Positions 37,710 to 55,098 of a stretch of DNA of 64,000 bases are shown here, in pieces. The stretch lies in contig OZ245015.1 of NCBI GenBank assembly GCA_965223705.1, positions 544,001 through 608,000 of the forward strand, given 5' to 3'. Below the pieces are notes generated by a model. It searched no databases, was not told the origin of the DNA, and saw nothing but the letters and a program-made list of their open reading frames with translations. Position 1 is the first letter of the stretch; each line of letters starts with the position of its first letter. The position numbers were made by a program, and so were the translations under genes. Source of the DNA: Myxococcota bacterium. Its GTDB lineage: Bacteria > Myxococcota_A > UBA9160 > UBA6930.

Positions 37710-37907
37710 CTATCGGGCGGAGGCGCATTCGGCCGCCCAACGATCCTTGAACATCTCCATGAAAAGCGCGGAGGGTCCCTCTCCAGCGATCATCGAGAAG
37801 TGTCCGCTGCCAGCGAACTCCGTCCCGCAGGACGCGCATTCGGCATCGAATTCGGAAACGGTGGCGAGGCAGGACAAGCAGAGGCGGTCTTCGTGTTGCT
37901 GGTTCAT
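37710..37907 (-). CDS. Small zinc-ribbon-like hypothetical protein (65 aa)
   Basis: MNQQHEDRLCLSC..ECASCG; SD AAGGAG upstream of ATG 37907; preceded by the ECF motif. Confidence 0.6.
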   Translation of the reverse strand: MNQQHEDRLCLSCLATVSEFDAECASCGTEFAGSGHFSMIAGEGPSALFMEMFKDRWAAECASAR

Positions 37908-37930
37908 GTCGAACTCCTTGTTTGTGAAGG

Positions 37931-37957
37931 AGTCGATCTCGAGCTGTTTTCGGATCA
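37931..37957 (-). promoter_or_regulatory. ECF-type promoter motif copy 1
   Basis: TGATCC-gaaaacagctcgagat-CGACT (16-nt spacer). Confidence 0.8.
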
Positions 37958-37989
37958 CCCGCCCGGCCATCAAAAAAAACTGCGCAAGG

Positions 37990-38016
37990 TGATCCGGTTC
38001 GGGTGCCGCGGCGACT
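37990..38016 (+). promoter_or_regulatory. ECF-type promoter motif copy 2 (divergent from copy 1)
   Basis: TGATCC-ggttcgggtgccgcgg-CGACT, preceded by an A-tract. Confidence 0.8.
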
Positions 38017-38287
38017 TCTCAGCAGATCGTGCGTTGGATGTACCCACCCGGAACAGCAACACACAAAGAGCAGCCGGTACGGCGCATCGCTCGATCGAAA
38101 CGGCGCCGGCCCCCTAGGGTCGGCGCCGCTCCGTCGTTCCGGAGACGGAACGGCGGGCGGAGCTCGCGGCAGGGTGTCGCGCGCTCGAGCCCACGGCGTG
38201 CATGGGGACGGCAGCCCCGCGCTACCCTTGGGTCACCCGGTGCCTGATGCGGGGACGGGTGCCACCCACAAAGCAAGGAGGGTGAGC

Positions 38288-38695
38288 ATGCCCAATTCAC
38301 GAACAACCTTTGACTGGAAGAACCGAGTCTCGGTGCGCGCGACGCGTGCGCGGCTACAAGCCGCGCTATTGGCTGCCGGCGTCGCGTGCGCGATCGGGCC
38401 ATGGCAGGAGGCCTACGCCGGCATCATCGTCGGAGAGGAGAAGACGCAGAGTCTTCCCCTGGGCGCTGTCGTACCCGATTCGAGCACGGTGGGGGTGGTA
38501 TTTCCGCCCTCGCATTATCGGTTTCCCGGCTATGCCGGGTACGGCTATGGCTACGGCTATCCGTACGGATCGTTTGGAGCTTTTGGCTACTACGGCCGGG
38601 AGTACCTCCACTTCAATCCGGACCGAGCCTTCCGCCGCCATCTTCGCGCCGACCAAGTCGGGAGCATGCGCGAACTGCGGCGCGGGAGGCGCTAG
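38288..38695 (+). CDS. Exported Gly/Tyr-rich hypothetical protein
   Basis: SD AAGGAGG; hydrophobic segment ending AYA; low-complexity GYAGYGYGYGYPYGSFGAFGYYG; terminator follows. Confidence 0.6.
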   Translation: MPNSRTTFDWKNRVSVRATRARLQAALLAAGVACAIGPWQEAYAGIIVGEEKTQSLPLGAVVPDSSTVGVVFPPSHYRFPGYAGYGYGYGYPYGSFGAFGYYGREYLHFNPDRAFRRHLRADQVGSMRELRRGRR

Positions 38696-38708
38696 AGCTT
38701 AGAGCTCG

Positions 38709-38744
38709 CCGGGGCGGGGGTGAACCCGCCCCGGTTTCTCTTTT
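38709..38744 (+). terminator. Rho-independent terminator
   Basis: CCGGGGCGGG-loop-CCCGCCCCGG followed by TTTCTCTTTT. Confidence 0.8.
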
Positions 38745-38765
38745 CGGGAAGTCTTGCACGGGGAT

Positions 38766-38895
38766 CGAGGTTTGGCCGTGGCCAGTGGGGGCACCGTGCT
38801 CAAACATCCTCGCGCCGATGCGGCAACGAGGTCGCCTCGCGTGCCTCGGCGGCGCTGCGGAACTGCGCGCGGTACCCCCACTGGCCACGGCCTCG
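38766..38895. repeat. ~130-bp dispersed palindromic element, copy A
   Basis: Similar to 54970..55098; 23-bp terminal inverted repeat; lies between convergent genes. Confidence 0.85.
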
Positions 38896-38942
38896 CGACG
38901 CCTAGCTAGACCGCCTCCCTTGACCCCGTCTGCAGAAGATTT

Positions 38943-41480
38943 CTAGCCGGCGGGTATCACCGCTGGGACGAAGAAGAAGTCGCCGGACTCGTGGCCCGCG
39001 AATCGGATGGGGGAATACTGGGGTAGCTGCTCGATGGGCGCTTCGTAGGTCACGCGCGCCGAGACTTCCTGGAAGACGCGCTGCGCTTCGAGGATCACGT
39101 CGTTGCTCTCGAGAACTTCGATCAACGCGCGAGCGAAGATCGAGTGCGCGCCGCCCCCGGCATCGAGAACCGGAGCGAGTCCGCCCGAAGTCAGCGCCGT
39201 TCGGGAGCGCTTCGCGGCCATGGTCTCGATCCACTTCACGCGCGCCTGCTCGCTCATCCCCGCTTCCAATCGGGCGAGCGATGAGCGCGTGAGCGCACCG
39301 GAGTAGCACGAGTCTGCGATCACGAGTACGTGGCGCGCGCTCATCGAATTCAACATGTCCGTCAGGGCCACGTTCGAGATCCAGTTCGCCGTGCTGTCGG
39401 CTTCGGCATCGATCGGGAGCCAATGGCCGCGCATGTTCGTCTTGTCGAGCTCGCCGTGACCCGCGTAGTAGATGAGAAGGTTGTCGTCCTCTGTCAGCTC
39501 GCGACGCAGATTGTTGAGTGCGGAAAGCGTCTGGTAGCGATCCGCGTCGTAGATCGTGGTGACCTTGAAGCCGTACTTGTCGCGCAGCAGACCCGAGACC
39601 ACCTTGGCGTCGTTGCGCGCGGTGTCGAGGGTCGGCAGCGACCGATACGCATTGTTCCCGATGACGAGCGCGTGGTAGTTGCCGAAGTTGATCGGCGGAA
39701 GCTTCGGTCGATCGGGTGCGGCGGCTACCGCCGGCGGTTCAATGGTGCGGACGCCGCTGGCCTGCACCAGGAAGTTCCGCGAGGCGCGTTTGCCGAGTTC
39801 ATCGATCGCGACGATGCGGACATCCGTGCCGTTCTCTCCCACCGGGAGCTCGCGTTCGAAGATGCCGTGCGCCGTCACTTCGATCGCCTTGTCATTGAGT
39901 GTCACGGAATACAAACCCGCGGGCGCTTCCACGCGTCCCACGACCCGTTGCACGTCGGAGGTCGCCATAAATACGGGTCGGATGCCACGCGTCATGCGAA
40001 GGGGGGGCTCGATGATCTGGATCGACGGCCCGGCGATCTCTTCGCCTTCGCCGCTCGCCGGTTTCGCCAGTTGTGCGACTTCGACCTTGCGGGCTTCCGC
40101 CTGATCCCGGAGTCGCTTGATCTCTTGGTCGAGGGCCGCGAGTTCTGCGCTCTTCGCTTCGAGCGCCGCCTCGCGCTCGGCGACGCGTTGTTCACGGGCT
40201 GTCACGGCTTCCCCGCGATCGCCCATCGCCTCCTCTGCGGCCTCGAACTCCGCTTCGAGCCGGGCGAGGTTCGCTTCGCGCTCCGCGAGCTCCCGCCGTT
40301 GCGCCTCGCGGGCCCGGTCGAGCTCAGCGCGCTGCGCGCCGAGCTCAGCGCGCTCCGACTCGAGTGTCGCGGCGGAAGCTGCCAGCGCTTCGCGTTCCGA
40401 ACCGAGCTTGTGTCGCTCCGCGGCGAGCGCTTCGCTCGCGGCGGCATTGGCCTCGCCTGTGCGCTCGCTTTCGCCGAGAGCGCGCTCTCGACGATCGAGC
40501 TCCTCGGCGCGAGCCGCAAGCCGAGCGCGCTCCTGCGACACGGCGTCGTCCCGCGCGCCGAGCTCCGCTTCGCGTCGGTCGAGTTCGCTCTGCCGCACGG
40601 ACGTGTCGTCGTTGGCTTCCCGTTCGAAAGCTTGAACCGCGGCGCGCTCCTCGGTCAGGCGGCGCTCTCGCTCTGCGATATCGCGTTGCTGCTCGGCGAG
40701 CTCGCGCTTGCGCGCTTCGAGCTCTGCGCGCTCCACGGCGAGTGCGTCTCGTTCGCGTGCCGCTGCGGCCTCATCATTCGAGAGCCGAGCGCGCGATTGC
40801 GACAGCTCCCCCTCGAGACGACTGATCTCCGAGCGCATTTCCGTGCGATCGCGCTCGCTCTCGGCGAGTTCTGCGCGAAGACTCGCGAGCTGCGTCGTCT
40901 CCCCCGGCGCCGAAACGAACGCGACGTCGGTGCCTTCGAGACCCGAGGCTCGGCGGTACCACGACACTGCGGTCTCCATGTCGGCGGGTACGCCGAGTCC
41001 GCGTTCGTAGAGCTGGCCGAGATTGACCTGCGCCGCGGCGTGGCCCTGCTCAGCAGATTTCCGGTACCAGGTCGCGGCGGCTTTGTAATCGGGTGCCGTG
41101 CCGAGCCCGCGCTCGTAGATCTCGCCGACGTAGTTCTGGGCGACGGGGTCGCCGCTCTCCGCGGACTGCTGCCAAACGCGCAGTGCCGTGCGGTAGTCCG
41201 CCCGGTCGTAACTCACGTATTCGCCGCCGCGGATCTCGCAGTCGAGGCCCGTGGTCTTCACGGGCTTTCGGGGGGCTAGGTAGGTGACCTTGCGCCCCAT
41301 CTTGCGGACCCGCGCGGGCAGGAGACAATCGACGACGAGGAGGTCGTCGGGGTCCTGCACGGCGGCCACGGGGTTCGGCGCGGCATGGGCCTGGGGTAAA
41401 CCTGCGATGAGAACAAGCAGCAGCAACGCGAGCGCGCGGCGCAGGACGGTGGCGTCCCGGCCTAGGGGTGCGGCAAGCAT
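38943..41480 (-). CDS. Exported Sel1-repeat / coiled-coil / caspase-like (peptidase C14) protein
   Basis: Signal-like N-terminus; Sel1 repeats (AQNYVGEIYERGLG, AQVNLGQLYERGLGV); long E/R/A coiled coil; YHALVIGNNAY; catalytic YYAGHG and IADSCYSG. Confidence 0.9.
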   Translation of the reverse strand: MLAAPLGRDATVLRRALALLLLVLIAGLPQAHAAPNPVAAVQDPDDLLVVDCLLPARVRKMGRKVTYLAPRKPVKTTGLDCEIRGGEYVSYDRADYRTALRVWQQSAESGDPVAQNYVGEIYERGLGTAPDYKAAATWYRKSAEQGHAAAQVNLGQLYERGLGVPADMETAVSWYRRASGLEGTDVAFVSAPGETTQLASLRAELAESERDRTEMRSEISRLEGELSQSRARLSNDEAAAARERDALAVERAELEARKRELAEQQRDIAERERRLTEERAAVQAFEREANDDTSVRQSELDRREAELGARDDAVSQERARLAARAEELDRRERALGESERTGEANAAASEALAAERHKLGSEREALAASAATLESERAELGAQRAELDRAREAQRRELAEREANLARLEAEFEAAEEAMGDRGEAVTAREQRVAEREAALEAKSAELAALDQEIKRLRDQAEARKVEVAQLAKPASGEGEEIAGPSIQIIEPPLRMTRGIRPVFMATSDVQRVVGRVEAPAGLYSVTLNDKAIEVTAHGIFERELPVGENGTDVRIVAIDELGKRASRNFLVQASGVRTIEPPAVAAAPDRPKLPPINFGNYHALVIGNNAYRSLPTLDTARNDAKVVSGLLRDKYGFKVTTIYDADRYQTLSALNNLRRELTEDDNLLIYYAGHGELDKTNMRGHWLPIDAEADSTANWISNVALTDMLNSMSARHVLVIADSCYSGALTRSSLARLEAGMSEQARVKWIETMAAKRSRTALTSGGLAPVLDAGGGAHSIFARALIEVLESNDVILEAQRVFQEVSARVTYEAPIEQLPQYSPIRFAGHESGDFFFVPAVIPAG

Positions 41481-42303
41481 GGGGAGATCCTCCGCTCGAA
41501 AGGCAAGACTCGGGCTCTCAGCGCTGCTCGGTCTCGCAATTTGGGCCCTGGGTTGTGCCGCGCCGGCGAAGCGTTTCGACGCGACGGCCCGGGACCTCGG
41601 TTTCACACGAGAAGTCGTCCGAGGCACCCGTTTCGATCACATAGTTTACCACCGGCGCCGAAAACCCTCGGAGGGGACGCTCCACATCTACCTCGCGGGC
41701 GACGCCGATCCGAGGCGCGCGACGCGTTGGTTCCCACCGGATCCGACCCCAGGGGGGCTCCCCCTTTTCCTGATGGCCTCGGATCCCGGACCGAGTCTTC
41801 TCCTCGGACGCCCGTGCGCCCACGACGCGACGCGCTGCGACGAGGTCGCGCCCTGGACGAGCGCCCGCTACGGCGAGGCCGTCGTCGAGAGTCTCGGCGC
41901 GGCGATCGATAGCTTGGAGCCCGCGACGGGTGACCGCGGTGTCGTGTTGATCGGTTACAGCGGCGGCGGGACGCTCGCGATGCTCGTGGCGGAGCGGCTC
42001 GCCCAGGTGCGTCGCGTGGTGACGCTGGCGGGCAACCTCGACACGGCGGCCTGGGTCGGCCACCACGGCTTCCCCGGGCTGCCGGATTCACTCAACCCCG
42101 CCGAGCGGCCCCCGCTCTCGGTCCCTCAACTGCACCTCGTCGGCGAAAACGACAAGGTCGTCCCGCCCCATTTGGGGCGAACTCTTTGGGAACGTCAGCC
42201 GAACGCGGAAGTGCGCCGGCTTCCCGGCGTCGATCACACCTGCTGCTGGGAGCGCGTTTGGCCCGCCGTCGCTCGCGAGCTCCGCGAAACACCGGCCCGC
42301 TAG
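41479..42303 (+). CDS. Alpha/beta hydrolase, probable lipoprotein
   Basis: Lipobox-like ALGC, LIGYSGGG (GxSxG), DKVVP, DHTCCW. Confidence 0.82.
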   Translation: MGRSSARKARLGLSALLGLAIWALGCAAPAKRFDATARDLGFTREVVRGTRFDHIVYHRRRKPSEGTLHIYLAGDADPRRATRWFPPDPTPGGLPLFLMASDPGPSLLLGRPCAHDATRCDEVAPWTSARYGEAVVESLGAAIDSLEPATGDRGVVLIGYSGGGTLAMLVAERLAQVRRVVTLAGNLDTAAWVGHHGFPGLPDSLNPAERPPLSVPQLHLVGENDKVVPPHLGRTLWERQPNAEVRRLPGVDHTCCWERVWPAVARELRETPAR

Positions 42304-43709
42304 AACTGGTACCGCAGCCCGCCGCTCAGGGTGTAGAGGTCGACGGAGCGGAGTCCCAGCACGGTCTCGAAATCGATGAAAAAGGACAGTCCGCCCGAGA
42401 GCGCTGCGGCGATTCCCGCCGCCACGTTCGCGTAGGTCCGATCCGGCCCGTGGGCGCGGAACGTGAACCCGTTCTGGTTCGGGTCCGCGACGAAGGTCGC
42501 CCTCAAATCACGGCCGTCGTCTCCGTATTCCTGCTCCCACTCGGCCCGGATGTACGGCGTGAGCACGCCGAAGCTCGTCGACAGCGCATACCGAATCGAG
42601 AGACCCACGTCGCTCGTGAGCGAGCGCACCGTTTGATCGTCGAAGTCGAGGCGCAACGCACTGGCGATGCCGGAACCGCTTTCCGTGTAGCCGTCGATGT
42701 CGAGGTGGGTGTAGTTCACGCGAACGTAGGGTTCGATTTCCCAAGCGCCGCGGTTGATCGCGTAACCCGCGCCGACGCTGACCGCGATTTCGTCTCCGTC
42801 CGTATCGCCGGACAAGGTCCCGGTTACCGGCGCTGCGGAAGCCAGCGCGTACGCGATATCGCGGTCGAGGTCGTAATCGATGTCGGCGTAGCTGATCACG
42901 CCGTCGACGTACCAGCGCTCCATCTGATAGCTGGCGTAAGCGGAGAGGTGCAGCGCCTCCTTGTCGAGGTCACCGGCGCTGTCGTCAAAGTCGAACGTCG
43001 ATTCCGAATAACCGATCGAGATACCGGCCGCCGTCGCGTCGGAAAAGCGGTAGTCGACGCCGCCCACGATGCCGTAGGCGTCTTCGATATCGAAGCCCGC
43101 CTCTTCTTCGGTTTGATCGTAGTCGCCCCACGACCCGAGTCCTGTCACCCAGACGCCGATCCGATCGCCCAACAGGCCGCTTACCGGGTCGTCGCCGGCG
43201 GCAAACCGCTCGGCGAAAGCGACTTCGAGATCCTCGCCGCGCAGCGAGTCCCCGTCCGCGTCGCGCAACGTCAGGCCCGCGAGTTGGATGCCGCGGTGTC
43301 CGTCGCGCAACGCGATCAGTCGGCCCTTCATGAGGTCGATGTTCGTCGCGGTGGTTTCCGTCGAGGCGGCGCGCGTCGCCGACAACTCGTCGAAAGCGAC
43401 ATTCGAGTAGCCGATGTTGCGTTCGGCATCGCTCAGGCCGGTGGGATCATTTCCCAGGGTGCCGTCGCCGTCGAAATCGTTGACGACCATTTCGGTGCAC
43501 AGACCGGAGAGTCGCTCCGTTTCATTCGCCGAATTTCGATTCGGCGTCGCTCCGAGAAAAGGGCACACGGAGAAAATGAACTCCTCCCCCTTCTGGGGGA
43601 CGATGGACTGGAGCGAATCGTCGATCGGTGACTGCGCCAGCGCTTGACCGCTGCCGAAGAGCACCATCGAGAGTGCGAACGCAATGAGTAGCTTGGCCTT
43701 GACGTACAT
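42300..43709 (-). CDS. Autotransporter beta-domain outer-membrane protein with short passenger
   Basis: Signal peptide ..QALA|Q; GVDYRFSD, IDGYTESG, PYIRAEWEQEY, C-terminal GLRYQF. Confidence 0.88.
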   Translation of the reverse strand: MYVKAKLLIAFALSMVLFGSGQALAQSPIDDSLQSIVPQKGEEFIFSVCPFLGATPNRNSANETERLSGLCTEMVVNDFDGDGTLGNDPTGLSDAERNIGYSNVAFDELSATRAASTETTATNIDLMKGRLIALRDGHRGIQLAGLTLRDADGDSLRGEDLEVAFAERFAAGDDPVSGLLGDRIGVWVTGLGSWGDYDQTEEEAGFDIEDAYGIVGGVDYRFSDATAAGISIGYSESTFDFDDSAGDLDKEALHLSAYASYQMERWYVDGVISYADIDYDLDRDIAYALASAAPVTGTLSGDTDGDEIAVSVGAGYAINRGAWEIEPYVRVNYTHLDIDGYTESGSGIASALRLDFDDQTVRSLTSDVGLSIRYALSTSFGVLTPYIRAEWEQEYGDDGRDLRATFVADPNQNGFTFRAHGPDRTYANVAAGIAAALSGGLSFFIDFETVLGLRSVDLYTLSGGLRYQF

Positions 43710-43757
43710 CTCCGGTGATTCCTTCCCTGAATCGAGCCGCAACGGCGGCCCAGTGTA

Positions 43758-45779
43758 CTAAGAACGGGGCATGCTGCGAAGCGGCACGCGATCGATCGCC
43801 CAGCCGGCGGGCCGAGGCGCTGCGGGCCCCGAGCCGATGTGCTCGAGAAGCGATTCGACCCAGCTCGTACTGCGTGTTCGGCGGGCTTCTCCCACGAGCA
43901 CGGTCGGGTCGTCGATCGGGTCCTCGGTCGACAGCAGCACGAGTGTGTCGGTTCCAAAGGGCGGAGCGACTTCGATCCCGGTGCGTCCCAAAGGAACAAG
44001 AGGCGGGGGAACTTCGTCCGCCGATACGGGAACCCGGTTTCCCACATTGCCGGATTCTGCGCGGGGAAAGAGCAGGGCGCGCTCGCCGTACCCGTCGACC
44101 ACGAAAACGTAGACGTAGCGCTGTTCGACGCTGGACGTTTCGACATCGTTTCGGCGCTGCAGCATCAACTCGAAACGGTCGCCTTCGAAGACCACGCCAC
44201 CCGGAATGACGCGGCCCGCCGAGGTGTCCCGCAAGACCAGGCGGTAGGGGAAGGCCGAAGCGTTTTCGGGGGATTCGAGCAGCAGCCAGTTTCGCGCGAC
44301 AGCCAAGCGTCGGGCGTTCTCCGCGAGGAGCGCCGCTGCATTCGGCGCGGTCTCGGGAATTCCGGCCCCACGGGGCGGGAGCCCCGACGCTTCGCCCGTC
44401 CGCCGCTGCCAGTGAAGCTCCGGCGCCGGCCCGGAGTGGTCTGCGGCGAGGACGTAGTGGGCCTGCGCTTCGGAAACGAGCTCGACCCCGGGAACCGATG
44501 GGATCGAGTGGGCGAGCTCTTGGCGAAGCGTCGGCGGAACCAGTGCGGGCAGCGCGACCTGGAGGGCGCCGCCGGTCGGGTGCGCCCAGCGGACCACGCG
44601 AAACAGCGTGCCGGTTCGGACCGCCTCGGGATCTCCGGCAAGAACCCGTGCCGTCGAGCGATTCAAGCCGCTCACCTGTTCGACCTGTATGCGGACGCTG
44701 GTTTCTTCGGAGACGAGCTCGCTACCGCGAAAAATGCCGGCCGCGGTGCCCGCTCGGAGAACCACCGAGTCGCCGTCCGCCGGTCCCAACGCTGCGAAGT
44801 GCCGTCCCGGGCGTGCGGTTGCGGGCGCGGCCCCGAAAAGCGCGCGTTCCCGTCGCTCGAGGGAGCCCGCCAGCACGGGTGTTTGCACGTTGTGCCCGCT
44901 GCCGAGCAGGGCGCGCGTTCGGGCGAAGAGCTTCGACACAGGCTCGTCAGCCGGGGCCTGCCCCAGGGCCTCGAACAGGGCAACGCTGAAGGCCCCGTGG
45001 TATTCGCCGCTCGCGTCGCGGGATTCTCGGGCGAGCTCACCGTCGGAGGTCGCCGCCAAGACGAGCGCACCGCGCTCCTCCGGTGCTCCTCGGGGGTCGA
45101 AGGGCGGCGTCGCGGCTCCCGCCTCGGCTTCGTAGCGGGGGGGAAGCGTCCGCACGTCTTCTACCGCGTGGAAGCTTCGAGTGGCCGAGCCGCTGTGACA
45201 GCTGTCGAGAATCACGACGAGCTCGGCGCCGCGATCGAGGACGTCGTTGAACAAGCTGCGGAGCTCTTTGTCCCGGATGTCCGCGGCGCCGCGATTCGCG
45301 TCGGCCGGCACGATCGTTTCGTCGAGGAGGTCCGCTTCGGTAGACGCCGCGTTCCGCAACTGTGAGCCGTGCCCCGCGAAGTAGAACAAGTTGACGTCGC
45401 CCGGGCCCGAAGCCTCGATCAGATGCTCGCGTATGGCGTTGAGGATGCCGTCGCGGGTGGCTTCGCCGTCGGTCAGTACACGAACGGACTCGCTCGGAAA
45501 CCCAAACCGTCCTTGTAGGATCGCCCGGAGCGCTTCGGCATCGTTCACCGCGCCGCGGAGATCGACCCAACTCGCGGAGGCTTTCGCCCGCCCGCGCGTC
45601 ACAGCGACCGCGCCGGCTTCCGGTCTGTAGCGGTCGATGCCCACCAAGAGCGCGCGTTGTGCGCCGGCGGCAGCGTCGGCGAAGCAACAGATGGCGAGGG
45701 CGGCGAGGAGCCAAAGGGTCGGCCGACGCCGCGCCTTGTGCACAACGTCGGCCGACCGATGGTGGGAGTTTCGGATCAC
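43758..45779 (-). CDS. Exported caspase-like (C14) protease with C-terminal DUF4384-like domain
   Basis: Signal-like N-terminus; RALLVGIDRY, LRGAVNDA, FYFAGHGS, ILDSCHSG, HGAFS; C-terminal YVYVFVVDGYG..LLFP..PPFGTDTLVLL. Confidence 0.88.
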   Translation of the reverse strand: MIRNSHHRSADVVHKARRRPTLWLLAALAICCFADAAAGAQRALLVGIDRYRPEAGAVAVTRGRAKASASWVDLRGAVNDAEALRAILQGRFGFPSESVRVLTDGEATRDGILNAIREHLIEASGPGDVNLFYFAGHGSQLRNAASTEADLLDETIVPADANRGAADIRDKELRSLFNDVLDRGAELVVILDSCHSGSATRSFHAVEDVRTLPPRYEAEAGAATPPFDPRGAPEERGALVLAATSDGELARESRDASGEYHGAFSVALFEALGQAPADEPVSKLFARTRALLGSGHNVQTPVLAGSLERRERALFGAAPATARPGRHFAALGPADGDSVVLRAGTAAGIFRGSELVSEETSVRIQVEQVSGLNRSTARVLAGDPEAVRTGTLFRVVRWAHPTGGALQVALPALVPPTLRQELAHSIPSVPGVELVSEAQAHYVLAADHSGPAPELHWQRRTGEASGLPPRGAGIPETAPNAAALLAENARRLAVARNWLLLESPENASAFPYRLVLRDTSAGRVIPGGVVFEGDRFELMLQRRNDVETSSVEQRYVYVFVVDGYGERALLFPRAESGNVGNRVPVSADEVPPPLVPLGRTGIEVAPPFGTDTLVLLSTEDPIDDPTVLVGEARRTRSTSWVESLLEHIGSGPAAPRPAGWAIDRVPLRSMPRS

Positions 45780-46318
45780 TAGTTCGCCTTGCGGAACTGT
45801 ACGCGTCGGTTCTTCGATGCCGTGGGCTTCACCTCGGGCAGCGGCGTGTCTTCGCCGCGACCCACGGTGACGAGCCGAGCCGGGTCGATCTGGTGCGACT
45901 TCACCAGGTAGTTCCGGACGGACGCCGCGCGAAGCTCGGAAAGTCGCTGGTTGTAGGTCCGCTCGCCGATCGCATCGGTGTGGCCCTCGATCACGAGTTT
46001 CTCGTTCTTCGCCTGCTCGGTGCGCAGGGCCTGGCCGAGCTGATCGAGGAAGGGCTGGGATTCCGCGAGGATCTCCGCCGAATCAAAACCGAAGCGCACC
46101 TGGAACCCGATGGTCTGGGGCGGCGTGGGCGCAGGCGCGTCCTTCATCACGATCGACCGCGTCTTGTAGGCCGGCGCTGCGGCGGGGAACAGGCGGTCCG
46201 CCAGTTCCTGGGCCGACGGGGTCGAGCCCTCGATCATGTGTACCTCTTCGGCGGAGGCGGTATTCGCCGCGAGGATCAGCGCGGCACCTGTCAGCAAGAC
46301 TCGAAGCAATCCAAACAT
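45779..46318 (-). CDS. OmpA C-terminal-type peptidoglycan-binding protein
   Basis: Signal peptide; FGFDSAEI, IEGHTDAIG..YNQRLSELRA, NRRVQF. Confidence 0.92.
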   Translation of the reverse strand: MFGLLRVLLTGAALILAANTASAEEVHMIEGSTPSAQELADRLFPAAAPAYKTRSIVMKDAPAPTPPQTIGFQVRFGFDSAEILAESQPFLDQLGQALRTEQAKNEKLVIEGHTDAIGERTYNQRLSELRAASVRNYLVKSHQIDPARLVTVGRGEDTPLPEVKPTASKNRRVQFRKAN

Positions 46319-46348
46319 GTTCAATTCTCCTTGGGCCAGGGGCCTTGG

Positions 46349-47875
46349 TTATTGCGAGACGTCGATCCCGAGGCGGCCCACCGTGAGCCCCTTCGGATCG
46401 ATCGCTTCAAAATGTCCCAACAATTCGTTCAAGTTCGCGACGGGAAGCGGCTGTAGGTCGCCGCCCTTGAGCTCGGACGGGAGATGCAGTCCGAGCTCGC
46501 GGTCGGAAGCGACGCACGCGATCTCTTCCCGCGTGTTCGGTCGTTCGAACAAGATGGTGAACGGAGCATCGCGAGACGGAACCTCGACGAAGCGCTTGCC
46601 GCCCACGTAGGAGTTCGGCTGGAAGCGGTTCGGAAAGATCCGCGCCACGTGACCGCCCGCATCGGCGTAGTAGCAGTAGACGTACGCGCTGTCCGAAGTC
46701 TCCACGGTCATGCGGAACTCTTCGCCGACTTTGTAGGTCGGGTTCGCGCCCCGCTCGTTCAGCATCTTGAGCGTCAACGGTTCGCGCGCCGCAAGCTTCT
46801 CAGGAGTCGGCACCGAGCCAGTGTCTTCGAGGCTCGGCGGACCGGCGGCGACCTGGTAGTCCGCGCCGAGAAGCGTCCGATAGAGGTCGAAACCCACGCG
46901 ACCCGTCGGCACGAGGTTATTCTCGGTTTCGAACCGTGCGATGGCTTTGCGGGTGGCGCCGTCGAGCGTTCCGGCGCTTTCTCCCTCGAGATAGCCGCCG
47001 GCGACGAGTGCGCGCTGCACGAAGAGCAAGCGCTGCTTGTCCGACATGCTGGCGTACCAGTCGCGAATCTCCGCCAACACCTCGGGGTGCGTGGACTCGA
47101 TCTGCAAGCACTCCCAGTACGGCACGCGGGCGAGCTTGCCGAGGAGCTCGATCGCGCCGAGCTCGACCAACGTACGAACGGCTTGGTGCATGCCTTCGCT
47201 GCGGTCGATATCGATGCTGAAGGAAATGCCGACTTTTTCGATCAACCCGGCGAGATCCGCGCCCTTGCCCTTGCGGCGCACGGCCAAGCGGTTGCTCGCG
47301 GTGAGCCCGGGAACGACGCGCTTCGAGGGGTACTGAACGATGTTCATGTCGAGTGCCAACACCGAGGCGGTATTCGTTGCCGCCGCGGACGCGTCACCCG
47401 AGAGATCGTCGTTGTCGTAGGAAAGGCCGCCGCCGATCGAGTTGTCTTCGACGTTTCGATCGAGCTGCGTGATCGCGCCGCGAATATAGAAGTGCGGCAG
47501 GTTCTGATTGACCGGAAGCTCGGCCTGTTTCCCGATCGTGTCGAGATAGATGATCTGCTCCTGGTACTGCAGATCCAGATAGGAGAAGGCCTGGCTTCGC
47601 ATGGTCATCCGGGAAACGGCCGACATCAGCATGTCGTCGGTACCGGCGGCGACCTTGCCCGTCGCGTCCGGGATGCCGATCGACGTGATGCGGAAACCGC
47701 GCACGCCGTTTGCCACGAACATCTGGTCCATGCACGTCAGCGACTCGCTGAAGCTCGTCATCGACCGGACCGCCTGGGTCTTCGGTACGGACGTGATGTA
47801 GGGATCTTCGGGGATGGTCTTACAGGCGACCAGCCCGAGACAAAGCGAAAGAACGAGTAGAGCTTTAGCAGCCAT
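46349..47875 (-). CDS. CsgG/HfaB-family lipoprotein fused to PG-binding and DUF4384 domains
   Basis: Lipobox LVAC; SFSESLTCM, IPDATGKV, FYIRGAITQLDRN, LALDMNIV, EGMHQAVRTLVE (CsgG/HfaB pattern); VQRALVAGGY..TRKAIARFE..NNLVPTG (PG_binding_1); YKVGEEFRMTV..AYVYCYY..IFPN (DUF4384). Confidence 0.8.
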   Translation of the reverse strand: MAAKALLVLSLCLGLVACKTIPEDPYITSVPKTQAVRSMTSFSESLTCMDQMFVANGVRGFRITSIGIPDATGKVAAGTDDMLMSAVSRMTMRSQAFSYLDLQYQEQIIYLDTIGKQAELPVNQNLPHFYIRGAITQLDRNVEDNSIGGGLSYDNDDLSGDASAAATNTASVLALDMNIVQYPSKRVVPGLTASNRLAVRRKGKGADLAGLIEKVGISFSIDIDRSEGMHQAVRTLVELGAIELLGKLARVPYWECLQIESTHPEVLAEIRDWYASMSDKQRLLFVQRALVAGGYLEGESAGTLDGATRKAIARFETENNLVPTGRVGFDLYRTLLGADYQVAAGPPSLEDTGSVPTPEKLAAREPLTLKMLNERGANPTYKVGEEFRMTVETSDSAYVYCYYADAGGHVARIFPNRFQPNSYVGGKRFVEVPSRDAPFTILFERPNTREEIACVASDRELGLHLPSELKGGDLQPLPVANLNELLGHFEAIDPKGLTVGRLGIDVSQ

Positions 47876-48200
47876 CGCGGTTGAATCCTCGGTTGATGTT
47901 GATGACGTCGCCGTCGATGACAACTTCGATCTCGTCGGGCACGTCGTTCTTGCCAGGACCGGTGAAGACGCTGCCGATCGACAGGCTACCGGTGCAGTTC
48001 ACAATATCGCCTCGGTGATAGAATTTTCCGGGCTCCTGCTCCTCGGGAACGATCGTTTCGCCCGCGACGCTGGCTTTGTGCATCTTGCGGAGATGCGAAG
48101 CCTTCACGCGGGGCTTGTTGAAATCGTTCGCCAACGCGGTGTGCGCCGGCACGAAGGAGAGGCCGAGTGCGAGTAGCAACAGGGTGTTCGTGATCTTCAT
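47865..48200 (-). CDS. Small secreted protein overlapping the start of the CsgG-like gene (candidate nucleator/adaptor)
   Basis: Signal peptide ..TALA|N; CTGSLSIGSV and EIEVVIDGDVINI; terminal Cys; SD-like GAGGGAG upstream. Confidence 0.75.
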   Translation of the reverse strand: MKITNTLLLLALGLSFVPAHTALANDFNKPRVKASHLRKMHKASVAGETIVPEEQEPGKFYHRGDIVNCTGSLSIGSVFTGPGKNDVPDEIEVVIDGDVININRGFNRDGC

Positions 48201-48242
48201 GGTGTAGCTCCCTCGGTCCTTATTGTGGACCAACTGGTTGAG

Positions 48243-48269
48243 AGTCGCGCCTTCTCTTGTCCTGGATCA
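48243..48269 (-). promoter_or_regulatory. ECF-type promoter motif copy 3 (upstream of the export operon)
   Basis: TGATCC-aggacaagagaaggcg-CGACT. Confidence 0.8.
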
Positions 48270-48518
48270 CCGAGAAGTCGGGAAATCGCTCGTATCCTCG
48301 GGAACCTGCTGGACTTCGGTGTCCGCGCGATCGCCCAAGGGGCAGAGCTCGGTCGGCGAGTCGATCGGCAAGCTCGGTACGGCTTCGAAAGACACGGTTT
48401 CGCAGTACGTGATCTCGATGGGATCGTCGACGTCCGCATCGCTGAGCGCAAACGCCGGTACGGTCGTCGTGAAGTCGAGGAAGAAGAGGGCGGTCAGCAG
48501 AAGTCGTTGTCGTTTCAT
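48267..48518 (-). CDS. Small acidic secreted protein (83 aa, 2 Cys)
   Basis: MKRQRLLLTALFFLDFTTTVPAFA signal-like segment; own promoter motif and GAGG SD. Confidence 0.55.
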   Translation of the reverse strand: MKRQRLLLTALFFLDFTTTVPAFALSDADVDDPIEITYCETVSFEAVPSLPIDSPTELCPLGDRADTEVQQVPEDTSDFPTSR

Positions 48519-48547
48519 CGGATGCCTCGGGTGCGTTGTTGATGAGG

Positions 48548-48574
48548 AGTCGACGGCGGGGGCTTCTCGGATCA
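48548..48574 (-). promoter_or_regulatory. ECF-type promoter motif copy 4
   Basis: TGATCC-gagaagcccccgccgt-CGACT. Confidence 0.8.
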
Positions 48575-48585
48575 CCGAACGCGAA

Positions 48586-48630
48586 GAAAAACGGGGTGCG
48601 GCGCCGACTCTGCGGGGGAGTCGACGCCGC
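48586..48630 (-). terminator. Hairpin / possible weak terminator after paralog 5
   Basis: GCGGCGTCGACTC..GAGTCGGCGCCGC on the minus strand; U-tract displaced by ~6 nt. Confidence 0.5.
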
Positions 48631-48669
48631 GGGGGAAGCCACGGCGTGGCTTCCAGGGCTCGTGTTTAT

Positions 48670-48996
48670 TTACTGCTGGGGTTCGCAGTCGGTCGCGGCA
48701 CCGAGCGATCCGAAGGTCGCGCACGCGTTCGACTCGTAGGATTTCGCCATGGTGTCGACGTACTTGGCGGTGCCCTCGAGGACCGGATCCCAACCGATGC
48801 GCGTGTAGTCGTGCATGGTCGCGACGCTCGTGTACGCGCTCGACTTCGTGCCCGACGCGACGGTATCGACGTTTTCACCCACCGCGAGGGTGATGAGGAG
48901 GTCGTGGACCTCGGTGGTGAAATCGCCAGCGACGCTGGCCTGGGCGAGGGAGAGAGTCGCGATCGCCGCAATCGCGACGGAGAACAAGCGGTTCAT
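48670..48996 (-). CDS. Secreted two-repeat beta-rich protein, paralog 5
   Basis: MNRLFSVAIAAIATLSLAQASVA|GDFTTEV..VDTVASGTKSSAYTSVATMHD/YTRIG..VDTMAKSYESNACATFGSLG..C; SD AAGGAG. Confidence 0.88.
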   Translation of the reverse strand: MNRLFSVAIAAIATLSLAQASVAGDFTTEVHDLLITLAVGENVDTVASGTKSSAYTSVATMHDYTRIGWDPVLEGTAKYVDTMAKSYESNACATFGSLGAATDCEPQQ

Positions 48997-49046
48997 GGTG
49001 GTGCTCCTTGTGGTGTGGGTCCCGCTATTTCCGGGACTTGAAGAGG

Positions 49047-49073
49047 AGTCGCGCCAGGGCGTGTCACGGATCA
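49047..49073 (-). promoter_or_regulatory. ECF-type promoter motif copy 5
   Basis: TGATCC-gtgacacgccctggcg-CGACT. Confidence 0.82.
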
Positions 49074-49082
49074 CCGATCCCG

Positions 49083-49116
49083 AAAAGAAAAAGCGCCGGC
49101 TCTTTCGAGCCGGCGC
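49083..49116 (-). terminator. Rho-independent terminator after paralog 4
   Basis: GCGCCGGCTC-gaaa-GAGCCGGCGC followed by TTTTTCTTTT. Confidence 0.88.
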
Positions 49117-49141
49117 CAGAGGGGCAGGGGGACGTGTTGCC

Positions 49142-49465
49142 TTAGCGGGGTTCGCAGAAAGTCGGGTTGCCGACGGAACCGAAGGACGCGCAGGCGTGCG
49201 CGTTGTAGCCGCTGGCCTTGGTCTCGATGTAGCGCGCGTCGCCCTTGAGGTTCGTCTTGTAGTTGATGAGCGTGTCGTCGTGCACTGTCGCGACACTCGT
49301 CGTGGCGCTCGAGTAGTCACCCGTGGCGAGCGTGTCGACCTGGTAGCCGTAGGCGTCGGTGTCGAGCTGCGCGCGGATCTCGGTGGTGAAGGGGTTCGCG
49401 AAGCTCACGCTCGCGATGGTCAGGGCGGCAAAGCCGGCGATGGCGGAAACGAAGAGGCGGTTCAT
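49142..49465 (-). CDS. Secreted two-repeat beta-rich protein, paralog 4
   Basis: 107 aa; signal ..VSFA|NPF; very similar to paralog 3; SD AAGGAG. Confidence 0.9.
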   Translation of the reverse strand: MNRLFVSAIAGFAALTIASVSFANPFTTEIRAQLDTDAYGYQVDTLATGDYSSATTSVATVHDDTLINYKTNLKGDARYIETKASGYNAHACASFGSVGNPTFCEPR

Positions 49466-49519
49466 GATGTTCTAGCTCCTTGGTGGTGTTTGTGGGTCGC
49501 TTCCTGCGACTTGCCTAGG

Positions 49520-49546
49520 AGTCGGGCCAGGAGGGGTCTCAGATCA
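49520..49546 (-). promoter_or_regulatory. ECF-type promoter motif copy 6
   Basis: TGATCT-gagacccctcctggcc-CGACT. Confidence 0.78.
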
Positions 49547-49554
49547 CCTGCGGC

Positions 49555-49589
49555 AAAAAAAAAGCGCCGGCTCACGAATGAGCCGGCGC
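49555..49589 (-). terminator. Rho-independent terminator after paralog 3
   Basis: GCGCCGGCTCA-ttcg-TGAGCCGGCGC followed by a T-run. Confidence 0.9.
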
Positions 49590-49614
49590 CGTCGTGTCGT
49601 GTCGGCTGCGAAGG

Positions 49615-49965
49615 TTACTCCTGGACGAGCATCTTGCTGCGCTGGCCGGGCTCGCAGTGGGTCGGGTTGCCGACGGAACCGAAGGACGCGCAGGCGTGCG
49701 AGTCGTAGCCGCTGGCCCGGGTCTCGATCCAGCGAGCGTCGCCCTTGAGGTTCGTCTTGTAGTTGATGAGCGTGAAATCGTGCACGGTCGCGACGCTCGT
49801 CGTGGCGCTCGAGTGGCGGCCCGAAGCGACGGTATCGACCTGGTAGCCGTAGGCGTCGGTGTCGAGTTGGCCGCGGACCTCGGTGGTGAAGGGGTTCGCG
49901 AAGCTCACGCTCGCGATGGACAGGGCGGCAAAGCCGGCGATGGCGGAAACGAAGAGGCGGTTCAT
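49615..49965 (-). CDS. Secreted two-repeat beta-rich protein, paralog 3
   Basis: 116 aa; same architecture with a short C-terminal extension. Confidence 0.9.
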   Translation of the reverse strand: MNRLFVSAIAGFAALSIASVSFANPFTTEVRGQLDTDAYGYQVDTVASGRHSSATTSVATVHDFTLINYKTNLKGDARWIETRASGYDSHACASFGSVGNPTHCEPGQRSKMLVQE

Positions 49966-50020
49966 GATGTTCTAGCTCCTTGGTGGTTTTTCGCGGGTCG
50001 CTCCTTACGACCCGTGAAGA

Positions 50021-50047
50021 GGTCGTTCGAGGAGCCGCCCTGGATCA
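50021..50047 (-). promoter_or_regulatory. ECF-type promoter motif copy 7
   Basis: TGATCC-agggcggctcctcgaa-CGACC. Confidence 0.8.
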
Positions 50048-50055
50048 TCGACAGC

Positions 50056-50090
50056 AAAAAAAAGCGCCGGCTCGAGGTGAGCCGGCGCTT
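50056..50090 (-). terminator. Rho-independent terminator after paralog 2
   Basis: AAGCGCCGGCTC..GAGCCGGCGC followed by a T-run. Confidence 0.9.
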
Positions 50091-50113
50091 CGGAGGCGGG
50101 GAAAACCGTCGGG

Positions 50114-50440
50114 TTAGTGCTTCGGGCGGCAGTACGTCGGGGCACCGACCGAGCCGAAGGTCGCGCAGGCGTGGGCGTTGTTGCCGCTGGCCTCGGTGCG
50201 GATGTATTCCGCCTTGCCCTTCAGGTTCGTCTTGTACTGGATGAGCGTGTAGTCGTGCACGGTCGCGACGCTCGTCATCGCGCTCGAGTTGTCGCCCGTG
50301 GCGAGGGTGTCGACGTTCTTGCCGTAAGCATCGGTGTCGAGCTGAGCCCGGACCTCGGTGGTGAAGTCATTGGCGAAGCTCACGTTGGCGATGGACAGGG
50401 CGGCGAAGCCGGCGATTGCGATAGCGAAGAAGCGGTTCAT
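50114..50440 (-). CDS. Secreted two-repeat beta-rich protein, paralog 2
   Basis: 108 aa; signal ..VSFA|NDF; two 37-aa repeats; C-x11-C. Confidence 0.9.
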   Translation of the reverse strand: MNRFFAIAIAGFAALSIANVSFANDFTTEVRAQLDTDAYGKNVDTLATGDNSSAMTSVATVHDYTLIQYKTNLKGKAEYIRTEASGNNAHACATFGSVGAPTYCRPKH

Positions 50441-50505
50441 TGGATGGTTCCTTTGGTGGGATCGTTTTCAAACTCTCTGTCGCGCCCCTGCGCGACTTGC
50501 TGAGG

Positions 50506-50532
50506 AGTCGTTCGCCGGCCGCTTCCGGATCA
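50506..50532 (-). promoter_or_regulatory. ECF-type promoter motif copy 8
   Basis: TGATCC-ggaagcggccggcgaa-CGACT. Confidence 0.82.
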
Positions 50533-50573
50533 CCCGAGCTCATTTTTTTCAGCGCGATCGCGATTTTTTCCAG

Positions 50574-50613
50574 AAAAGAAAAAGGCGCCGGCTCGAGGGG
50601 AGGAGCCGGCGCC
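50574..50613 (-). terminator. Rho-independent terminator after paralog 1
   Basis: GGCGCCGGCTC..GAGCCGGCGCC followed by TTTTTCTTTT. Confidence 0.88.
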
Positions 50614-50639
50614 TCGGGAGAGGAGGAGAGCTTTCGGGG

Positions 50640-50975
50640 TTAGTTCTTCTCCTCGCAGTGGGTCGCGGGGCCGATCGACGCGACGCTCGTGCAGGCGCGC
50701 GATCCACTGTGGCTGGCCTCGGTCCAGACGTCGCGTACGGAGACGTCGATCTTGACCGGACCCTCGATCTTCGTGTCGTCGTGGATCGACGCGACGCTCG
50801 AGTAGGCGACGGCGTTGGCGGCCGTGGCCTTCGTCGTAACGTCCCGGACTTCCACGGTAATTTCGACCCGATCCTTGATCACGGTCGAGAAGTCACCGGC
50901 GAAGCTCGCGGTGGCGAACGACATCGACACGATGCTTAGGGTGATAGCGGCGATGAGGGCGAAGGCGCGGAGCAT
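50640..50975 (-). CDS. Secreted two-repeat beta-rich protein, paralog 1 (most divergent)
   Basis: ATG 50975 with SD AGGAG; STVIKDRVEITVEVRDVTTKATAANAVAYSSVASIHD / DTKIEGPVKIDVSVRDVWTEASHSGSRACTSVASIG. Confidence 0.88.
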   Translation of the reverse strand: MLRAFALIAAITLSIVSMSFATASFAGDFSTVIKDRVEITVEVRDVTTKATAANAVAYSSVASIHDDTKIEGPVKIDVSVRDVWTEASHSGSRACTSVASIGPATHCEEKN

Positions 50976-51031
50976 GGCTTTTCTCCTGGCTTGTTGATGT
51001 CGCTGGCCGCGCATCTCGCGGCTCGTTCCGA

Positions 51032-51058
51032 AGTCGCGGGCACTTCCCGTTTGGATCA
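51032..51058 (-). promoter_or_regulatory. ECF-type promoter motif copy 9
   Basis: TGATCC-aaacgggaagtgcccg-CGACT. Confidence 0.82.
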
Positions 51059-51144
51059 CCGCGAAGGAAAAAACGATTTATCCCCACGGGGCAGTGCGGT
51101 ACAGTACGATCGAGTCCTCGGTTAGAGAGGGTCGGCGACAAGCG

Positions 51145-52017
51145 ATGGATCGAGAACAGTGGAAGACAGTTCTCAACGCGGCGAGCGACGGCGACGCGCC
51201 CGCCTTGCTTCAGCTGACCCGCCAGGTCAGCCGGCTCCTCGAGGAGTACGGCGCCTACACCGTCCGTAAGGAGTGGGCCGAGGACGTCCAGAAGATCACG
51301 GCAGCGGTTCTCGAGGGATGGGCCGAGGGTGGAACCCTCGCCGCGGACACCCATATCGAAAGCGTCACCAAGAACCGTTTTTGGGGTCAGATTCTCGATC
51401 TGATGACCCAGAACGATATGAAGGCGGGCCAGCTCTTCTTTCCGACCGTTCGCCGTCTACTCGGCAAGTGGGACGGGGCCCGGCGCGCCGAGGCGCAATG
51501 GGACGACATCGTTCAGGAGACCGCGCACCAGCTCTGGGAGAGCTGGATGAAGGGTGGGGTGAAACGCCCCTGGTCGCTGCTGTGCACCATCGCGAAACGC
51601 CGTTATCTCGACAAAATCCGCGCCGAGCGCCACACGGAAGAAATCGAGGATGAAGCTTCTGAGGAGCTGGGTGACAGCCCCGGCGAGCTCTTCACCGAAC
51701 AAGCCCTGGCCGTCCTCGAAGAAGAGGAGCGGCAGGTCATTGTCCAAATGGACATCGAGGGCAGGACGCGCGTCGAAATCGCGGATTCTCTCGGCGTGAC
51801 CGAAGGCCAGGTGCTTTCGACGCGCCGGGCGGGGTTGCGCCGCATCTGGAGATGGCTCGGCCGCGACCTTCCACCGACCTCGCGCGCCGTCTGGGAGGAG
51901 ATGTTCAAAGGCGCGCGGCGAATTCCCCCGGAGGAAGTGGCCGCCAAGCTCAGTATGGAGACCGCCGAGGTCGTCGAGATCCTCGAAGAGGCGCGCGTCC
52001 TCACGGGGCTCGCATGA
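51145..52017 (+). CDS. ECF-type sigma-70 factor with N- and C-terminal extra domains
   Basis: sigma2 WDDIVQETAHQLW..LLCTIAKRRYLDKIR; sigma4 LEEEERQVIVQMDIEGRTRVEIADSLGVTEGQVLSTRRAGLRRI. Confidence 0.85.
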   Translation: MDREQWKTVLNAASDGDAPALLQLTRQVSRLLEEYGAYTVRKEWAEDVQKITAAVLEGWAEGGTLAADTHIESVTKNRFWGQILDLMTQNDMKAGQLFFPTVRRLLGKWDGARRAEAQWDDIVQETAHQLWESWMKGGVKRPWSLLCTIAKRRYLDKIRAERHTEEIEDEASEELGDSPGELFTEQALAVLEEEERQVIVQMDIEGRTRVEIADSLGVTEGQVLSTRRAGLRRIWRWLGRDLPPTSRAVWEEMFKGARRIPPEEVAAKLSMETAEVVEILEEARVLTGLA

Positions 52018-52038
52018 GGGAAAAAACTCGCTGTGAAG

Positions 52039-52065
52039 TGATCCGGAACGTCCACTGGCGCGACT
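52039..52065 (+). promoter_or_regulatory. ECF-type promoter motif copy 10 (upstream of the anti-sigma gene)
   Basis: TGATCC-ggaacgtccactggcg-CGACT, preceded by an A-tract. Confidence 0.82.
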
Positions 52066-52129
52066 TGGGTCCAGGGGAAGGTGGGTCATCGAACCCGCCG
52101 ACAGGAGCCTCGACGAAAAGGATCGTCCC

Positions 52130-52912
52130 ATGACCAGCAAGGCCCACGAGCCTGACTTCGAAGACCGACTCGAGCGGTCCACCGGTGCCCGCCTGCGCGG
52201 CGAAGACCCGCGCGAGCTGACCTGGCACCCCTCGGACAGCGAGTTGCTCGCGTTCCACGCAGAGCCTCGCGGGATGGAGGCCTCATTGCGGTCCCGCATC
52301 CGCGATCACTTCGGGAGCTGCGGATCGTGCCGCGATGCGTTCGCGGCGTTCTCGGTACTGGCCGCCGCGCCTGCGCCCGAGGTGGCGCGCGCAGCGGCCG
52401 CCGATTCTCCTTCTCTGCTCGAGCGCTTGTTCGAGCCGTTCCGCGCGATGTTCGCGCAGCCCGCCTTGGTCTCGGCCATGGTCGCGGTCTTCGCCGTCGC
52501 GGGTTTTCTCGCGATCGACCCGATCGATCCGGGCCCCGGTGAGGGCACCCGGGGCGTGTATCCCATCGAACGCACGCCCTCGGTCGATCCCGGCACGCTC
52601 GGTTCGGCGACCGTCACCCTGGCGAGCGGCTTTCCGACGCGAGTCGAAGCCGATGCGTTGTCGGGTTCTCGGGAAGTCGTCCTCGAGCTCCTCGCGCCTT
52701 CGACGCTTCCGGCGGGGCCCGAGTTCACGGTCCGCTTGATGGGGCCCGAGGGGGCCCGCGAAGCGGTCGCCCAGCTCGGCGAAGAAGCTCCGCCGCGGAT
52801 CGCCGCGATTTTTCCGGCCGAGGCTCTGACGCCCGGCGCGTATCGGGTGACGGTCTTTCTACCCTCCGACGCGACGTCCGCGCTCGCGACCTACGAACTC
52901 GAGATCGAGTGA
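52130..52912 (+). CDS. Zinc-binding (ZAS/zf-HC2) transmembrane anti-sigma factor
   Basis: HPSDSELLAF..HFGSCGSC (HxxxCxxC), one TM helix, beta-rich extracytoplasmic domain; lies directly after the sigma gene. Confidence 0.82.
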   Translation: MTSKAHEPDFEDRLERSTGARLRGEDPRELTWHPSDSELLAFHAEPRGMEASLRSRIRDHFGSCGSCRDAFAAFSVLAAAPAPEVARAAAADSPSLLERLFEPFRAMFAQPALVSAMVAVFAVAGFLAIDPIDPGPGEGTRGVYPIERTPSVDPGTLGSATVTLASGFPTRVEADALSGSREVVLELLAPSTLPAGPEFTVRLMGPEGAREAVAQLGEEAPPRIAAIFPAEALTPGAYRVTVFLPSDATSALATYELEIE

Positions 52913-54969: not shown

Positions 54970-55098
54970 CGAGGCCGGGCCGGGGCAGGTGGGGGCACCG
55001 TGCGGGGACATCCTCGCGCCGACCGGGTGACGAGATCCTTCGCGCGCTTCGGCGGCGCTGCGGAACTGCGCGCGGTACCCCCACCTACCCCGGCCTCG
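54970..55098. repeat. ~130-bp dispersed palindromic element, copy B
   Basis: Shares GTGGGGGCACCGTGC, ACATCCTCGCGCCGA and TCGGCGGCGCTGCGGAACTGCGCGCGGTACCCCCAC with copy A; lies between convergent genes. Confidence 0.85.

Follow-up and report, generated by a model that had tools for sequence, protein, structure and literature searches.

What is built by a locus in which a row of genes for small secreted repeat proteins stands beside a gene for a CsgG-like outer-membrane lipoprotein? The question is posed by a 64,000-nucleotide stretch of a Myxococcota genome (G000:C1:544001-608000, here called the window; the genome is 4.56 Mb in two contigs and 95% complete). We consider it reasonably probable that this locus encodes a type VIII-like system that exports a cross-beta fibre with a new subunit. 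Since the pairing of repeat proteins and lipoprotein recurs from marine Myxococcota to methanotrophs, it likely builds a surface fibre. We infer pore formation, export, stacking, nucleation and protease control as follows. Sec-exported unfolded subunits are predicted to cross a ring of the lipoprotein and to assemble by stacking into a cross-beta fibre on the cell surface, with a small protein, X7, as its nucleator or anchor, while the ring would be tied to the cell wall via the lipoprotein's own peptidoglycan (PG)-binding domain and an OmpA protein. A local extracytoplasmic function (ECF) sigma factor would read a promoter motif and turn on the subunits, the channel and its own anti-sigma, and exported C14 proteases would cut after Arg in xRG/RS motifs that lie in the linkers of the anti-sigma and of OmpA.

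An earlier note on this DNA had described five tandem paralogous secreted repeat proteins, and all five were recovered as intact open reading frames (ORFs) on the minus strand: S1 (50640..50975), S2 (50114..50440), S3 (49615..49965), S4 (49142..49465) and S5 (48670..48996). Each consists of a signal peptide, two repeats of ~37 amino acids (aa) and a C-terminal Cys pair; that there are only two repeats per subunit is a correction to that note. Identity to S2 ranges from 34 to 79%, S1 being the most divergent paralogue, and S3 shows 88% identity to S4. An assembly artefact was rejected, since the S2-S5 proteins are 56-88% identical and independent contigs carry both S3 and S4. Short-read contigs from four runs of one study cover 30 of 30 bins, with breaks at the near-identical S3/S4. 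A short palindromic element at window positions 38837-38890 and about 55000-55080, probably a REP-like (repetitive extragenic palindromic) repeat, likewise interrupts short-read contigs. Myxococcales metagenome-assembled genomes supply the closest named homologues, which fits a Myxococcota host. The G+C content of the region, 62-70%, is similar to that of the remainder of the window, and every gene on the earlier list was found intact among the window ORF calls.

No Pfam or NCBIfam family was found for the subunits, X7 or a further small protein, X6, in scans that comprised 21 window ORFs and 34 proteins (Pfam) and 17 ORFs and 68 subunit members (NCBIfam). The automatic label "DUF3060" was without Pfam support. 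The ESM Atlas returned unnamed clusters only (0.89 for S2 and 0.92 for the methanotroph subunit), and an Rfam search gave no match near the gathering score. In the AlphaFold2 model of S2 there are two beta-arch rungs (mean predicted local distance difference test score, pLDDT, 77), and the predicted subunit fold is a beta-solenoid of two rungs, both ends of which are exposed in the model. Foldseek with this model ranked FapC first, yet at E 1.4, and a PDB sequence search with the subunit found no relative, FapC structures included, at E<10. The earlier description of a non-curlin beta-solenoid subunit thus agrees with the model and with the lack of a characterised family match.

The subunit family comprises 331 clusters at 50% identity, with repeat numbers from 2 to >10. 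Acidovorax-type repeat proteins align with the family at hhalign E 3e-4 (probability 40) with mixed results in shuffle tests, and for Magnetococcus-type divergent subunits shuffle tests back homology in part only. A search for longer fused forms gave two near-identical 950-aa proteins with no named domain, which is weak evidence as only 8000 candidates were scored. Giant members of 786 and 946 aa (L198:1984-4344; P0267) have many repeats and long non-repeat regions, and one of them directly adjoins a lipoprotein gene. Tandem subunit genes in three to four copies also occur in Magnetococcus, a gammaproteobacterium and the relative G014 (L200:10192-12207; L128:8212-9548; L013:1877-3219). Variant subunits in four loci (L191, L193, L194 and L196, one of them from Acidovorax) have at least three repeats rich in Asn and end in CxxC; they resemble FapC more closely but gave no FapC match.

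The CsgG/HfaB-like outer-membrane lipoprotein (46349..47875, minus strand) carries C-terminal PG_binding_1 and DUF4384 domains. Its hhalign alignment to E. coli CsgG spans 221 columns (E 6.4e-5) with both amphipathic hairpins kept, the lipoprotein family profile matches CsgG at E 3e-7, and NCBIfam gives a match to HfaB (E 3.4e-11) which, at 40-43 bits, is below the cut-off of 300. These three results bear out its designation as CsgG-like. One orthologue passes the PF03783 cut-off and the window lipoprotein itself falls below it, so that on sequence grounds it is a distant member of the CsgG family. A PDB sequence search with its N-domain (residues ~18-265) found no relative. Next to it lies the gene for an OmpA-family periplasmic PG-binding protein (45779..46318, minus strand). 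Its linker holds a conserved motif, R[SGA][ILVG], which is present in 27 of 35 OmpA linkers (shuffles: mean 9.4, maximum 19) and in six of eight later linkers. Intact ORFs likewise confirm the remainder of the minus-strand set listed previously, namely two small proteins, a C14 protease and an autotransporter, the last two also by domain matches.

The first of these small proteins, X7 (47865..48200, minus strand), has a reading frame that overlaps the lipoprotein start by 11 nt. It possesses a signal peptide, a predicted basic helix and one circularly permuted subunit-type rung between two Cys. In bit scores against shuffled sequences, the X7 tail goes with the subunit type of its locus. Against the type II repeat, type II tails reach 17.4 bits (shuffles 2.6), with five of five exceeding all 20 shuffles, and none of the five exceeds the shuffles against the type I repeat; among type I tails, 22 of 41 exceed all shuffles against the type I repeat and 4 of 41 against type II. 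The tail of the window X7 scores 8.4, the best shuffle 2.6. X7 is not homologous to CsgF (probability 0.2). Because its single rung matches the subunit type of its own locus, the sequence suggests that X7 is a nucleator or anchor, which would combine the roles described for CsgB and CsgF in curli (PMC12822426). X6 (48267..48518, minus strand) is a small acidic ORF, probably exported, with its own copy of the promoter motif; no homologue was found in the fetched loci of other genomes, and it may be lineage-specific.

The gene order subunits-X7-lipoprotein-OmpA recurs in Myxococcota, Methylotuvimicrobium, Magnetococcus and Azospirillum lipoferum. Three of 61 relatives have subunits. Across the phylum, 4 of 401 genomes carry the lipoprotein, each together with subunits and X7 at that locus. 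Among 401 genomes from the class of G062, 11 have the lipoprotein and six a subunit match, all six within the eleven (seed included); among the other five, four have a divergent type II subunit adjoining the lipoprotein and in one the contig ends there. Sampled Pseudomonadota genomes carry the lipoprotein in 20 of 401 cases. The 19 new loci among these comprise nine with a subunit detected by hidden Markov model (HMM), six with divergent repeat proteins and an X7-like gene, judged by eye, two that are truncated and two with none. From 80 metagenome loci, the 36 with at least 1250 bp upstream were kept, 44 being too short, and one weak antisense subunit match (L089) was excluded from the count. 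Subunits lie beside the lipoprotein in 18 of the 20 loci outside one clade and in none of the 16 inside it. This subunit-free clade (27 lipoprotein sequences, support 0.998) is nested among the subunit-linked ones and may be a repurposed signalling version. Its genes (L043, L047-L103) adjoin those for a caspase, Crp, a CHASE-type adenylate cyclase, an MscS-like protein and OmpA.

Orthologous clusters exist in cultured strains, namely M. buryatense (EQU24_RS00125-RS00165), A. lipoferum (AZOLI_RS26745-RS26730), in which the core is present, and Acidovorax. The subunit and lipoprotein of genome G402 are identical to M. buryatense proteins. In Dataset S1 of PMC10466089, seven of the nine tags RS00125-RS00165 are up 2.3-5-fold at 500 ppm methane and their neighbours are down; RS00125, RS00135, RS00140 and RS00150 (the DUF4384 lipoprotein) were identified by annotation and the X7 (RS00155) and subunit tags by gene order. 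The M. buryatense subunit has the accession WP_017841445. The passages of the main text of that paper that were searched make no mention of RS00125-RS00165. A proteome of strain 20Z lists the lipoprotein (4-8 counts) and OmpA (2-5 counts) (PMC6277846). CCE21738 and CCE21739, likely the 20Z subunits by gene order, do not appear in that table. That the methanotroph genes specify an S-layer was rejected, since the S-layer is encoded by other genes (10.1101/2024.07.09.602694). A DUF2807 (GIN-head) protein, co-induced in M. buryatense, follows the core in several gammaproteobacterial loci (L002, L123 and L132).

The earlier expectation that subunits and lipoprotein co-occur is therefore upheld across phyla, though the association is not obligate. 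The 27-member clade, A. ramasamyi (lipoprotein without subunit) and two further genomes are without adjacent subunits. The M. buryatense subunit tag reaches only 5-16 transcripts per million (TPM) in Dataset S1 of PMC10466089, and so low a maximum (16 TPM) speaks against a fibre being abundant in planktonic culture. The genomes compared are related and not independent, and the co-occurrence counts therefore overstate the support.

The same clusters bear on the identity of the pore. The autotransporter beta-barrel (42300..43709, minus strand; PF03797) has a very short N-terminal region and orthologues in G014, G402, G110, G354, G062 and G055. Being passenger-poor, it might be the export pore instead of the lipoprotein, in the manner of FapF: it accompanies the system in distant genomes, has a stray subunit gene next to it in G062 and shows, at 462 TPM, the highest expression of the co-induced M. 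buryatense genes. We regard this as very improbable, since the barrel is found in one of the 80 metagenome loci (many of them short) and in none of the 19 Pseudomonadota loci, and the recurring unit is the adjacency of subunit, X7 and lipoprotein.

Among Gram-negative bacteria, two systems, curli and Fap, serve as the reference for fibre export, and surveys seek only their repeats (PMC12822426). Judged by its gene content, the module described here is not curli, holdfast or Fap. It shares with curli a CsgG-homologous lipoprotein with both hairpins, small Sec-exported subunits of imperfect repeats that are predicted beta-solenoids, and a small partner gene located immediately upstream of that for the channel. 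However, the repeat is ~37 aa long rather than ~20, there is no curlin repeat and no homology to CsgA, CsgB, CsgE or CsgF, the channel has added PG-binding and DUF4384 domains, OmpA, C14 proteases and an autotransporter barrel lie alongside, and an ECF sigma factor takes the place of CsgD. The curlin repeat PF07012 had no match in the genome (the E. coli control was positive), the subunit profile gave no CsgA match (probability 1; E 0.26), and the X7 and subunit HMMs gave E>0.3 against CsgE and CsgF, the genome itself not having been searched with PF10614/PF10627.

HfaB of the Caulobacter holdfast system, HfaA-HfaB-HfaD(-HfaE), is the best family match of the lipoprotein, although at about 40 versus 300 bits, and the two systems differ in architecture and host range. 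HfaB is required to localise non-curlin proteins at the surface, where those form sodium dodecyl sulfate-resistant complexes (10.1101/2022.07.20.500906). The lipoprotein might in the same way export the repeat proteins, these forming only short capped rods, a surface anchor or a coat, as HfaA and HfaD do for the holdfast. HfaB being the closest named family while Pfam CsgG misses the window lipoprotein would suit such an arrangement, as would the Cys pair that ends many members and could cap the solenoid, and the low Asn/Gln content. We nevertheless think it quite unlikely: the exposed solenoid ends of the two-rung monomer model speak against it, Hfa families, including the HfaA/HfaD type, match none of the 68 subunit members nor X7 or X6 (NCBIfam, E<=0.01), and genes for polysaccharide export do not recur beside the core in the examined loci, as judged only by eye and from BLAST labels.

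FapC ends in CxxC. The Fap system (FapA-F) likewise has a cysteine protease in its locus, and the Acidovorax-type variant subunit also has a terminal CxxC. The module differs from Fap in that its protease is of family C14 and not C39, its candidate pore is CsgG-like and not FapF, and its repeats are Asn/Gln-poor in this genome; no C39 or FapF-type domain was present among the window ORFs scanned with Pfam. The Fap repeat of 35-40 aa forms one cross-beta layer per repeat (PMC12392863); the present ~37-aa repeat is of similar length. No description of the module was found in the literature searched, CsgG with DUF4384 included, most subscription journals lying outside the search.

The locus also carries its own regulators. 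The ECF-type sigma factor (51145..52017, plus strand), with sigma70 r2/r4 domains in the window scan, contains an N-terminal sigma2 duplicate (E 4e-6) and an extra C-terminal helix-turn-helix-like segment, and orthologues in G014 and G055 are 52-56% identical; a sigma4 duplication was unsupported (E 5.4). The anti-sigma (52130..52912, plus strand) has an HxxxCxxC motif, one transmembrane (TM) helix, a periplasmic C-terminus and xRG after the TM helix. Both genes diverge from S1. The motif GTGATCC-N16-CGAC[TC] precedes S1 (51032..51059), and on the same minus strand copies stand before S2 (50506..50533), S3 (50021..50048, a weaker copy), S4 (49520..49547), S5 (49047..49074), X6 (48548..48575) and the X7-lipoprotein-OmpA-C14-autotransporter run (48243..48270). 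A plus-strand copy (52038..52065) precedes the anti-sigma gene, and a back-to-back pair lies at 37931..38016 (37958 on the minus and 37989 on the plus strand). The divergent pair and the ten motif copies were counted correctly in the earlier note, the required change being that the motif precedes the anti-sigma and not the sigma gene. With the pattern [GA]TGATC[CT]-N16-CGAC[TC], derived from the island copies themselves, there are 10 copies in 15.4 kb and 23 in the 4.54-Mb contig, thus 13 outside. A matrix from 20 equivalent sites in the G014, G055 and G061 loci gave as its top ranks five island sites and one outside (C1:986152). Good copies outside the window at G000:C1:986152 (-), C1:936560 (+) and C1:1755680 (+) precede ORFs of 84 aa (secreted-type), 108 aa and 60 aa, likely remote members of the regulon.

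We infer that the local sigma factor reads this motif from the co-conservation of the two in G014 and G055. Scans of gammaproteobacterial loci, which use another sigma, and of Azospirillum loci did not yield the motif pattern. The -35 element, GTGATC, agrees exactly with the ECF11 (RpoE/ChrR-type) consensus (PMC7826278), whereas the -10 is CGAC versus CGTA, the anti-sigma is of the TM zinc-finger type and not ChrR, and sigma2 is duplicated; no ECF group assignment was reached, and the duplicated-sigma2 architecture is absent from the searched passages of the ECF supplement (PMC7826278). S1-S5 look like separate transcription units, since a copy of the motif precedes each of them and the longest terminator-like stems (11-13 pairs) lie at the ends of S1-S4; the terminator count of the region is not above chance (17 vs 12.5 +/- 3.9).

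The exported C14 protease (43758..45779, minus strand) has intact His and Cys motifs and a weak C-terminal DUF4384. A second exported protease, with Sel1, long coiled-coil and C14 parts (38943..41480, minus strand), has orthologues in which the dyad motifs are intact (six of six full-length). Their p20 domains match PF00656 (E 1.8e-24 and 1.7e-22) with AGHG and D-S-C motifs forming the His-Cys dyad. An xRG motif follows the TM helix in four of five anti-sigmas, and S1, S2, S5 and X7, when checked for such Arg motifs, had none. Orthocaspases cut after positively charged residues (PMC6426788), and together with the Arg motifs in the anti-sigma and OmpA linkers this makes site-1 cleavage of the anti-sigma by the C14 proteases a reasonable inference. 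As the subunits are without such motifs, regulation of the system is a more likely role for the proteases than subunit maturation. Of the processing or signalling role proposed earlier, the processing half, by analogy to FapD, is without direct support, and the sequence motifs suit signalling at least equally.

The whole locus might then be a periplasmic signalling or envelope-stress circuit, in which the lipoprotein is a PelC- or FlgT-like ring scaffold and the repeat proteins are signals, possibly two-rung folds that template in a HET-s-like way, that activate C14 cleavage of the anti-sigma and amplify the regulon. We judge this unlikely, since both CsgG hairpins are conserved and amphipathic, five separately promoted tandem copies fit a high-dose structural product, long multi-repeat subunit members exist, and in several genomes the core occurs without C14 within the fetched flank. 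A surface fibre with protease control remains our preferred reading. A far-reaching form of it, which we offer tentatively and with more doubt than belief, is a third widespread class of functional amyloid in Gram-negative bacteria (Pseudomonadota and Myxococcota), in which a two-rung subunit would leave via a wall-anchored CsgG-like pore, a single-rung nucleator fused to an anchor helix would seed it, and extracytoplasmic caspase-like proteases would switch the system on by cutting an anti-sigma factor, so that a protease-amplified loop would join fibre assembly to transcription. The module itself would bring the subunit families to three, its repeat being of another kind and naturally very variable in number, and would account for a set of CsgG homologues without curlin. 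Exported caspase-like proteases, whose roles are largely unknown, would be linked to a defined regulon with candidate cut sites.

Among the remaining genes, that for an alpha/beta-hydrolase lipoprotein (41479..42303) is transcribed towards the autotransporter gene and away from the Sel1-C14 gene. Both the hydrolase and the Sel1-C14 protease had been noted as following the cluster, which holds with the orientation of the hydrolase corrected to the plus strand. In Myxococcota and in gammaproteobacterial loci, distant genomes included, the core is again accompanied by the genes for the autotransporter, the hydrolase and the Sel1-C14 protease. A Gly/Tyr-rich ORF (38288..38695, plus strand), missing from the earlier gene list and probably exported, lies ~300 nt downstream of the plus-strand motif; no homologue was found in the fetched loci. 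Another Gly/Tyr-rich secreted-type ORF lies beside the system in an unrelated locus, at L099:1529-1939, with no detectable homology to that of the window. Finally, a small zinc-ribbon-like protein (37710..37907, minus strand) is encoded behind a motif copy and has homologues beside the system in G014 and G055.

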